DNA of 64,000 bases from Saccostrea cucullata (lineage: Eukaryota). Position 1 is the first letter of the stretch. Every line of letters starts with the position of its first letter. Location of the stretch: NCBI RefSeq assembly GCF_032062105.1, contig NW_026936797.1:1-64000 (forward strand). Reading direction: 5' to 3'. The position numbers and the translations under genes were made by a program. Below are positions 6,570 through 7,933 of the stretch, piece by piece. Below the pieces are notes generated by a model. It was not told where the DNA came from. It was given only the letters and a program-made list of their open reading frames with translations, and ran no database searches.

Positions 6570-7933
6570 TTATTCCTCTGAGAACTCTTTGTGTCCAAAG
6601 ATCATTAAGAGCAGCTGGCTACCAATTTTTCGACTAGCGTTTCTAATCTATAATATACCGCTTCGATGTGGATTTTCCTTAAGGTCCTCGCGTCATTAGG
6701 TAAATGGCAATTAATGTTCTTCGGTCCATCTCTCATGTAAGGGAGATACATCGAAGTAGGTGGCATCACGGTAATAAAGTAACTGGTAGGTTCCCTCTAT
6801 CCAGTGTATTATAAGCAGGTAATAAGGTGGGGTCCTCCATCATCCTTGCGAAAAGGGAATCAGGTTGGTTTGTGGTGGCAACTGTGCAAAATATTTTTCC
6901 CGCCAACTCCAGACCGATACATTGTTGTGACACTAAGGGATGTGCGCTATCACTGGGGGAAGTCTGTATCGAAACGTCTCGTTTGTCAAACTCCCTCTCC
7001 GTCATAGTTGTTAGGGTTCTACTCGGTGTAGAGGTAATGGGGGCTCCTTATTGAAATATCAGGAGTCAGCAGGTCTTCTTCATCTGACGAGTCACTTAAA
7101 CTGTCCCCGAATAATCTTTTGAAAGACCTCCTCTGCGGTGTATCGTTCTTACTCTGACGTGATGATGTTGACTTTTCCGACTGCAGGAGTGGAGGCACTG
7201 GGATGGACTTCTCAGTGATGGGATGCAGGCTCGGGGGCAGTTTCTCAGTCAAGGAGCAGGCGCTGGGGTGGACTTCACGGTCGGCATTGATGGAGTCAGG
7301 CGCTGGGTCGGACTTCTCGGTCGACAGGAGCACAGGCCCTGGAGTGGGCATCTTGGTTGACAAGGGCGCAGGCGCTGTCATGGACTTCTCGGTAAATCGA
7401 CAGGAGTGCAGGCGCTGGGTGGGATTTCTGGTCGACATCGATAGGAGGCGGGCCGGGGGCGGACCTATGTGATGACGGAGCGCAGGCGCTTGTGCGGATC
7501 TCTTTGGTCGCTTCTTGGCATTCCGTCCTTGGTGAGGCTCCGTGTATTTGCTTTTTTTTTTTGCTTGGCCCTGGTGGTACGGCTGATCGCTGAACACAAA
7601 GGGGAGCTCCTTCATGAAGGGCACGACATGTCTCCCTCTCCCACGTTGGAAGGCCTCAAACTCCTTCTCTTCCTCTATGGTGAGCGTGAGTGTTGATTTC
7701 TTCACTCTCTGCAGGGTCCTGCCCTCACACCCGTGCTTTTGATCTTTTCGTCCAAGTACGATCCCGCAAGTGGCACATCGGAACACGAACCCAGAGTGCA
7801 CTGCAGTCATGTGCCTCTCACAGTGACTCTGTTGCGTGAACTCTCTGTCTTCTGTGCACAGTCCACATTTGAATCTTTGGATCTGTAAAGTAATAAAGGG
7901 ATACTTATCCCTATTTCTACAACTCCCAAACAT
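6570..7933 (-). CDS. Retrotransposon accessory gene: C2H2 + C2HC zinc fingers, Pro/Ser/Thr repeat linker, C-terminal KCTD-type BTB/POZ (T1) domain; frameshifted in this assembly
   Basis: FKCGLC...HMTAVH and FRCATC...HGC fingers. One frameshift near 7045 joins ORF 7019-7933 to ORF 6766-7005 (IGLELAGKIFCTVATT..PDSLFARMM). Further short shifts give YFI-RDATYFD--YMRDG and HLPNDARTLRKIHIEAVYYRLETLVEK, which match the T1 consensus YFIDRDxxxFxxILxYLRxG / LPxDxxxLxxLxxEAxYYxLxxL. Stop at 6605 or 6570 depending on one indel. Confidence 0.8.

Follow-up and report, generated by a model that had tools for sequence, protein, structure and literature searches.

A spliced zinc-finger and KCTD-type BTB gene in the env position of a mollusc Gypsy retrotransposon, a candidate regulator of its own family

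Self-comparison of the window, the 64,000 nucleotides of Saccostrea cucullata contig NW_026936797.1 that were analysed here, revealed a Gypsy element on the minus strand. Its features, in window coordinates and in the direction of transcription, are listed below.

5086-6137 and 13435-14482, minus strand: pair of long terminal repeats (LTRs) of the Gypsy element
13435..14482, minus strand: 5' LTR with TG...CA ends and a TATA-like box at 14028-14036
13893..13921, minus strand: ORF3 splice donor and ATG mini-exon in the 5' LTR (donor GT 13894-13893; exon garbled in the window copy, junction seen on sister copy L039)
13638..13819, minus strand: clustered TGGGA repeats past the donor, which are candidate binding sites
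13416..13433, minus strand: primer binding site TGGTGTCAGAAGTGGGAT, the same site as in most related families
11765..13291 (ends approximate), minus strand: gag, broken by indels, located by tblastn with a sister copy; weak Retrotrans_gag/SCAN matches
8046..11852, minus strand: pol with protease, RT, RNase H and integrase; interrupted by indels in the window copy
7883..7905, minus strand: polypyrimidine tract and AG splice acceptor
6570..7882, minus strand: coding exon of ORF3 with zinc-finger domain, linker and BTB, interrupted in the window
7613..7882, minus strand: N-terminal domain of ORF3, about 90 residues, with a C2H2 finger, a short C2HC finger and an extra strand-helix-strand
6925..7510, minus strand: basic patch, repeat linker (Pro/Ser/Thr, length variable) and acidic-serine patch (7073-7102), low pLDDT
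6623..6921, minus strand: KCTD/T1-type BTB domain
6141..6149, minus strand: polypurine tract
5086..6137, minus strand: 3' LTR, in which the mini-exon is readable (5538-5564), with a TGGGA cluster (5280-5483)

The order of the pol domains is that of Ty3/Gypsy elements, and the hallmarks of this group (paired LTRs, a primer binding site, a polypurine tract and a target-site duplication) are all present. The primer binding site is presumably of the tRNA-Leu type. Target-site duplications of 4 bp flank seven of the 11 other copies of the element. ORF3 lies between pol and the polypurine tract on the strand of pol, in the env position, as a sequence-only reading of this DNA had proposed. That reading had placed the segment rightly downstream of the integrase, the stop of which is found at 8046-8048 and not near 8015; the segment does end at 6570, but its coding exon begins at the splice acceptor (7882) and not at 7933. 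The segment had also been described as GC-richer, which applies to the finger region (0.52) and the linker (0.53) and barely to the BTB (0.41) when compared with pol (0.38). Another copy of this family, seen as a partial LTR at 1-957, is situated about 4.1 kb from the first, and contig C18069 has a similar pair.

Besides some diverged copies, a DNA search recovered 12 that are near-identical (86-100%). As the window element and L025 have the same flanks on both sides, and L026 and L035 have common flanks, the near-identical copies represent about ten distinct insertions. Alignment of the window ORF3 with its twin L025 showed 28 gaps, nearly all of a single base, where three to four small indels had been assumed; the window pol has 87 gaps against L028, and the window LTRs are only 89% alike compared with 99.3-99.9% in nine of the 11 other pairs. 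Judged from these alignments, the small indels are probably read errors. Biological decay was rejected as their origin, because the open copy L025 has identical flanks. Given these gaps, two peptides previously read from the window, IGLELAGKIFCT in the BTB and the basic patch KKKSK, are artefacts, and the sister copies read IGLDVGGKLFVTT and QAKKRAIY instead. The patch KKRPKR, the repeat linker and the stretch SLSDSSDEED are present as described. The expectation that the genomic copies would yield one open frame was borne out by five of the 12 copies, in which ORF3 is a single uninterrupted frame of 394-456 codons, its length differing mainly by linker repeats. The closest database protein, labelled Saccostrea cucullata and 99% identical, is probably the annotation of one of these copies and thus not independent.

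The ORF3 frame contains no ATG before the first finger and starts after a pyrimidine tract and an AG, whereas the LTR holds an exon of nine codons which includes an ATG and ends in a GT donor. On a stretch of L039 with a single LTR, contigs from public runs revealed the junction at exactly the predicted sites, with donor 7679 joined to acceptor 1556, canonical ends and 6122 bases skipped. This junction is carried by one contig of run X1 (RNA by guess), one of seven distinct runs, with 30 letters on its short side relative to a bar of 31. Unspliced read-through at the junction was observed in runs X2, X6 and X17, and the raw RNA runs X21-X23 barely cover the element. A spliced DNA copy as the source of the junction was rejected, as the intronic acceptor (pyrimidine tract and AG) is retained in 12 of 12 focal copies, the DNA search giving a lower bound. 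Among 30 loci, the acceptor AG directly precedes the domain in 23 and lies 9 bases further upstream in one; three have an ATG of their own and three were unscorable. Predicted LTR donors follow the residues RW (RW then GT) in L112, L113, L116, L119 and L038 and directly follow the start codon (ATG then GT) in L114, L124, L128, L135 and L137; no convincing LTR donor was found in L129. The Crassostrea virginica gene model P0010 shows the same join of QTRW to xQRF. The splice is supported by the conservation of the sites across families, by the C. virginica join and by two sisters devoid of the gene which have also lost the donor GT (see below). Overall, ORF3 appears to be made from spliced RNA, as seen in one contig, with a mini-exon in the LTR supplying the ATG. 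Signs of a spliced antisense RNA were noted on L039: GT-AG joints on its plus strand (2192>3048, 3100>6934 and 3222>6938), opposite to the direction of the element, span integrase, RT and gag (X1, X17 and one read in X21).

Pfam recognised no BTB in the two broken frames of the window. In all three uninterrupted sister copies scanned it reported BTB_2 with E-values of 2e-15 to 3e-15, in agreement with the T1-type BTB claimed from the window letters. The domain is of the KCTD type by sequence and fold; its nearest solved relatives include KCTD15 and KCTD1, with scores too close to those of other KCTDs to rank. An alignment of 28 members showed that the C2H2 finger, an HSG linker and the shortened C2HC finger are all kept. 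The two fingers named by the sequence-only reading were corroborated by their ligands and fold (CxxC...HxxxxH and a beta-beta-alpha fold in finger 1, a shortened C2HC variant in finger 2) and by the family profile, which finds tandem C2H2 DNA-binding structures with an E-value of 1.5e-9, its best solved matches including ZBTB20, HIC2 and ZBTB7A; they stay below the Pfam zf-C2H2 cut-off, which no member reached (E<=0.1 in seven of the 28 aligned, best 3e-6). AlphaFold modelled residues 1-90 with a pLDDT of about 90 and added a strand-helix-strand unit to the fingers; the full-length model (nine sequences) was confident for the BTB only. A Foldseek search with the finger domain returned no match at E<=0.001 among PDB or viral structures, and nothing beyond unnamed clusters or weak C2H2 ones was obtained from the ESM Atlas. 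Pfam detected no envelope or fusion glycoprotein in ORF3, the only matches being BTB_2 and weak fingers.

The finger domain has at least 69 matches in the Saccostrea cucullata genome. An integrase was found upstream on the same strand within 1.5 kb in 34 of 40 diverged loci fetched, within 2.7 kb in five more and in one not at all. BTB_2 was present in all ten diverged open frames scanned, and the RTs of the diverged gene-carrying families are 61-77% identical to the focal RT. The segment is thus no one-off insertion, being present in the 12 near-identical copies and in many diverged families. For 11 elements, the pol and ORF3 trees are congruent (Spearman 0.90 over 55 non-independent pairs). 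Selection was assessed in 34 pairs; where dS was measurable (>=0.2), dN/dS was 0.02-0.30 in the finger domain (13 pairs) and 0.05-0.34 in the BTB (15 pairs), far below 1 and indicative of purifying selection; near-identical pairs gave noisy BTB values of up to 0.91 on one to six differences. The 39 read variants listed in ORF3 fall in 31 codons with silent and five with replacing changes. These results identify ORF3 as a real element-encoded accessory gene under selection, with fingers preceding a KCTD-type BTB.

Homologues in the databases are labelled Crassostrea virginica, C. gigas, C. angulata, Mytilus edulis, M. coruscus, M. californianus, Pinctada imbricata, Pecten maximus and Gigantopelta aegis, and 17 of the 26 scanned reached the BTB_2 cut-off. 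In two gene models of Mytilus, pol domains are fused to the finger-BTB part, so that in mussels, too, the gene follows pol; for Crassostrea, Pecten, Pinctada and Gigantopelta the comparison covered the proteins. These sequence comparisons assign the gene to an old and sizeable group of Gypsy elements in molluscs, with homologues in oysters, mussels, pearl oyster, scallop and a snail. The sequence-only reading had noticed neither the splice to the mini-exon nor this age and breadth. In the second of two BTB trees (unrooted, with partial host sampling), 31 finger-linked BTBs fall on one side of a branch and 15 host-type BTBs on the other (SH-like 98), and nesting of element BTBs inside a host KCTD subfamily was not seen. 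This tree omitted L156, L158, L159 and L170, which stood next to element families in the first and look like element fragments. The position of all 31 finger-linked BTBs on one side fits acquisition of the domain in a single old capture. No intron-bearing host version of the gene was met among 40 loci examined, and a scan of JGI metagenomes found no locus. Several further observations concern this family. At silent sites the ORF3 domains have often diverged 5-15 times as far as the integrase in the same pair (L028/L033, L116/L117, L128/L135, L131/L153 and L153/L163), which suggests an exchange of ORF3 pieces between related elements. L147, P0151 and P0152 have the same finger domain, and no BTB was found in them. 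The members P0328, P0329, P0305 and P0294 are named 'potassium channel regulatory protein' or 'trichohyalin-like' in databases; some mollusc entries with KCTD-like or potassium-channel-regulatory names are, by sequence, probably retrotransposon genes.

In the recognition code of zinc fingers, positions -1, +2 and +6 of the helix are base-reading. Position +6 of finger 1 is Arg in 24 of 27 rows, and in finger 2 Arg at -1 is nearly invariant, mostly with Asp at +2. For the finger residues of the focal family the code predicts G-GGA. The focal LTR contains TGGGA ten times where 2.1 are expected (0 of 300 shuffles); eight of the ten are on the sense strand and seven of these eight downstream of the donor. 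The motif occurs 14 times in the L112 LTR (2.1 expected, 0 of 300 shuffles; eight and six by orientation), six times in L116 and five times in L119 (1 of 300 shuffles each). In families with Leu at -1 (L114, L124, L128 and their sisters) GGGT is top-ranked, and GGTG is favoured where position +3 is Ala or Ser (L131, L153, L163 and L165). The LTRs of L129 and L134 repeat AAGGT, and that of L127, which lacks Arg at +6, has no strong GG motif. The correspondence is imperfect: L119 has the focal finger residues, yet GGGT is top-ranked in its LTR; the L131 LTR carries both GGTG and GGGA; the strongest repeat of L124 is AGCTG; and the signal is weak in the LTRs of L037, L038, L111 and L166. The LTR repeats appear to follow the finger residues of their family roughly, a match that is suggestive and post hoc, the GGNN test having been picked after a first look, with about three independent contrasts, dependence on the recognition code and kin that share both traits. 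DNA binding and self-regulation, which had been proposed from the window alone, gain indirect support from these residues and repeats and stand as predictions.

Five of 20 further integrase loci (L211, L212, L213, L214 and L215) are without the gene; these sister elements have retained the LTR motifs. L211 is young, with LTRs 99.8% alike and open gag and pol, and stands beside L112 in the pol tree; the gene is thus dispensable in cis. L211 and L212 have both lost the gene and the donor GT and have kept 12 TGGGA each; supply of the protein in trans or use of the motifs by the host would both explain this retention. As L215, which has no ORF3 and a different primer binding site, carries 15 AAGGT in its LTR, the repeats may be sites of host factors, and as most focal motifs sit on the sense strand of the transcribed part, they could also be RNA signals. 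At ten of these 20 loci, the pol of which is more distant, there are C2H2-bearing ORFs without a BTB (six were scanned, all with sub-threshold finger matches), for which reason finger ORF3s may predate the BTB; as far as sequence tells, they form a wider class. The ORFs in question (L197, L199, L201-L205, L207, L208 and L210) follow pol and comprise 180-580 codons. Several of these distant families have a repeated LTR motif of their own, such as TTGGT, present 18 times in L197. At the end of the stretch fetched for L199 there is a long antisense frame of 397 codons, rich in Ser, Lys and His.

Few regulatory genes are known from animal LTR retrotransposons themselves, the transcription of which is generally ascribed to factors of the host. 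For ORF3 we propose the following course. The short ATG exon in the LTR would be joined by splicing to the acceptor just past the integrase, yielding a protein of zinc fingers, linker and BTB, which its basic patch may direct into the nucleus. Going by their base-reading residues, the fingers would bind the short motifs repeated in the LTR of their own family, and the BTB would multimerise, as known for the KCTD family, and so add avidity. The protein would then switch on or shield the transcription of its family, if the sign is activating as we presume, and the motifs kept by the gene-less sisters suggest that it may do so in trans. We assign a probability of about 45% to ORF3 being such an element-encoded, sequence-specific and oligomeric LTR regulator that promotes or protects the transcription of its own family.

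A role of the BTB as Cullin-3 adaptor, which the sequence-only reading had suggested and by which CRL3 would be recruited and the fingers would bring a host silencing or restriction factor, or the chromatin of the element, to ubiquitination, is compatible with LTR binding but unsupported by the present results and rather unlikely. The BTB is of the KCTD/T1 type and under selection, the host genome encodes Cul3, and many KCTDs bind it (PMC10856315), although KCTD1/8/12/15/16 do not. Most Cul3 contacts of KCTDs are made by the alpha2-beta3 loop (PMC10856315); among the element families this loop lacks a common motif and its length varies by up to about 13 residues, although Cul3 is highly conserved. 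Also against such a role, the finger ORFs at the ten more distant loci do without a BTB. Structure prediction without alignments for two BTB copies and the N-terminal part of Cul3 scored 0.16 against a mark of 0.34, which speaks neither for nor against it.

We likewise regard it as unlikely that the spliced product acts on RNA in the manner of Rev or CERV, binding G-rich repeats on the element RNA and promoting export or retention of unspliced genomic RNA. Since the splice takes out all of gag-pol, unspliced RNA has to escape, and the sense-strand bias of the focal motifs downstream of the donor would suit an RNA target; CERV of Cer1 is itself made from spliced mRNA and needed for export (PMC10309623). 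The presence of the motif in both orientations in L112, the resemblance of the finger residues to those of DNA-reading fingers and the retention of motifs in the donor-less sisters speak against this role.

Quite improbable is a self-limiting repressor, in which the same binding would serve to bring co-repressors through the BTB and dampen the expression of the family. KCTD1 is a transcriptional repressor (PMC7618933), and KCTD1 and KCTD15 are among the nearest solved BTBs, though not rankable against other KCTDs. However, a repressor acting in trans would be easily lost, gene-less sisters would profit from losing the motifs and yet keep them, and the gene's long persistence across many families accords with an advantage to the element. 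A captured piece of host gene that merely rides along without function was rejected as very improbable: its BTB and C2H2 parts must stem from host genes and several sisters lack it, but it is at odds with the dN/dS values, the conserved splice sites, the congruence of the pol and ORF3 trees, the single BTB branch apart from host KCTDs and the locus survey, in which no intron-bearing host version appeared.

Among host proteins, KCTD1/15/5/9/16 have the T1-type BTB in common with ORF3 by sequence and fold. ORF3 departs from their layout, an N-terminal BTB followed by the KCTD C-terminal domain: its BTB is C-terminal, follows the fingers, lacks that domain and forms a branch of its own. ZBTB/POK factors also combine a BTB with C2H2 fingers; ORF3 does not share their N-terminal BTB of the PF00651 class and their long C-terminal finger arrays, and the architectures are convergent.

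Non-env third ORFs after pol, with gains and losses between families, are known from LTR retrotransposons of bdelloids, where they encode DEDDy exonucleases, GDSL esterases, coiled-coil or membrane proteins and are typically made from spliced messages (PMC5408684); 'BTB' and 'zinc' do not occur in the available text of that paper. CERV, compared here by its description only, is like ORF3 a product of spliced mRNA and a nuclear regulator of an LTR retrotransposon, Cer1 of C. elegans, but acts on RNA export and is described with neither finger nor BTB (PMC10309623). Env-carrying Ty3/gypsy elements have their third ORF in the same position and from spliced RNA, the latter seen here in one contig, whereas ORF3 has no envelope domain; 'BTB' and 'zinc finger' are absent from the main text (PMC13524379) as available. 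The anti-silencing proteins of the VANC/TnpA type (PMC5735166; 10.64898/2026.08.24.746577) are, like ORF3, element-encoded accessory factors. They act in trans and are associated with family-specific short repeats in non-coding element DNA, in the case of VANC its targets (PMC5735166), features that ORF3 may share, although such repeats also occur in the gene-less L215; they differ in belonging to plant DNA transposons, in their domains and in that their activity was demonstrated, while that of ORF3 is inferred. 'BTB' does not occur in the available main texts of PMC6238403, PMC10294476 and 10.64898/2026.08.24.746577. As far as these sources go, non-env ORF3s (PMC5408684), a spliced nuclear regulator of an LTR element (PMC10309623) and sequence-specific anti-silencing factors of DNA transposons (PMC5735166) are already known. 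No description of a finger-BTB ORF3 was found in the papers searched, in line with the initial impression that this architecture is not known from LTR elements.

Extending the reading of ORF3 as an LTR regulator, one can tentatively picture an old mollusc Gypsy lineage organised like complex retroviruses. Each family would have a spliced zinc-finger factor, the helix of which would co-evolve with the LTR repeats; a KCTD BTB would have been added in one branch for multivalent binding, and gene-less sisters would freeload in trans, an animal counterpart of plant VANC that seems possible rather than probable. A conserved finger-BTB gene in many families across molluscs makes the escape of such elements from silencing testable. 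The protein and its candidate sites are available for this, as are natural variants in specificity and natural mutants without the gene.

The remainder of the window contains repeated coding exons at 19033-20056, 36356-37480 and 43420-44004, which by eye we take to be HSP70-12-like; one fragment was scanned and gave no Pfam match. A duplicated unit of 1.7 kb with an unnamed ORF occupies 48553-52374, a tandem array with a 63-base repeat lies at 33540-34150, and 57467-57985 is presumably an arfaptin-like exon.
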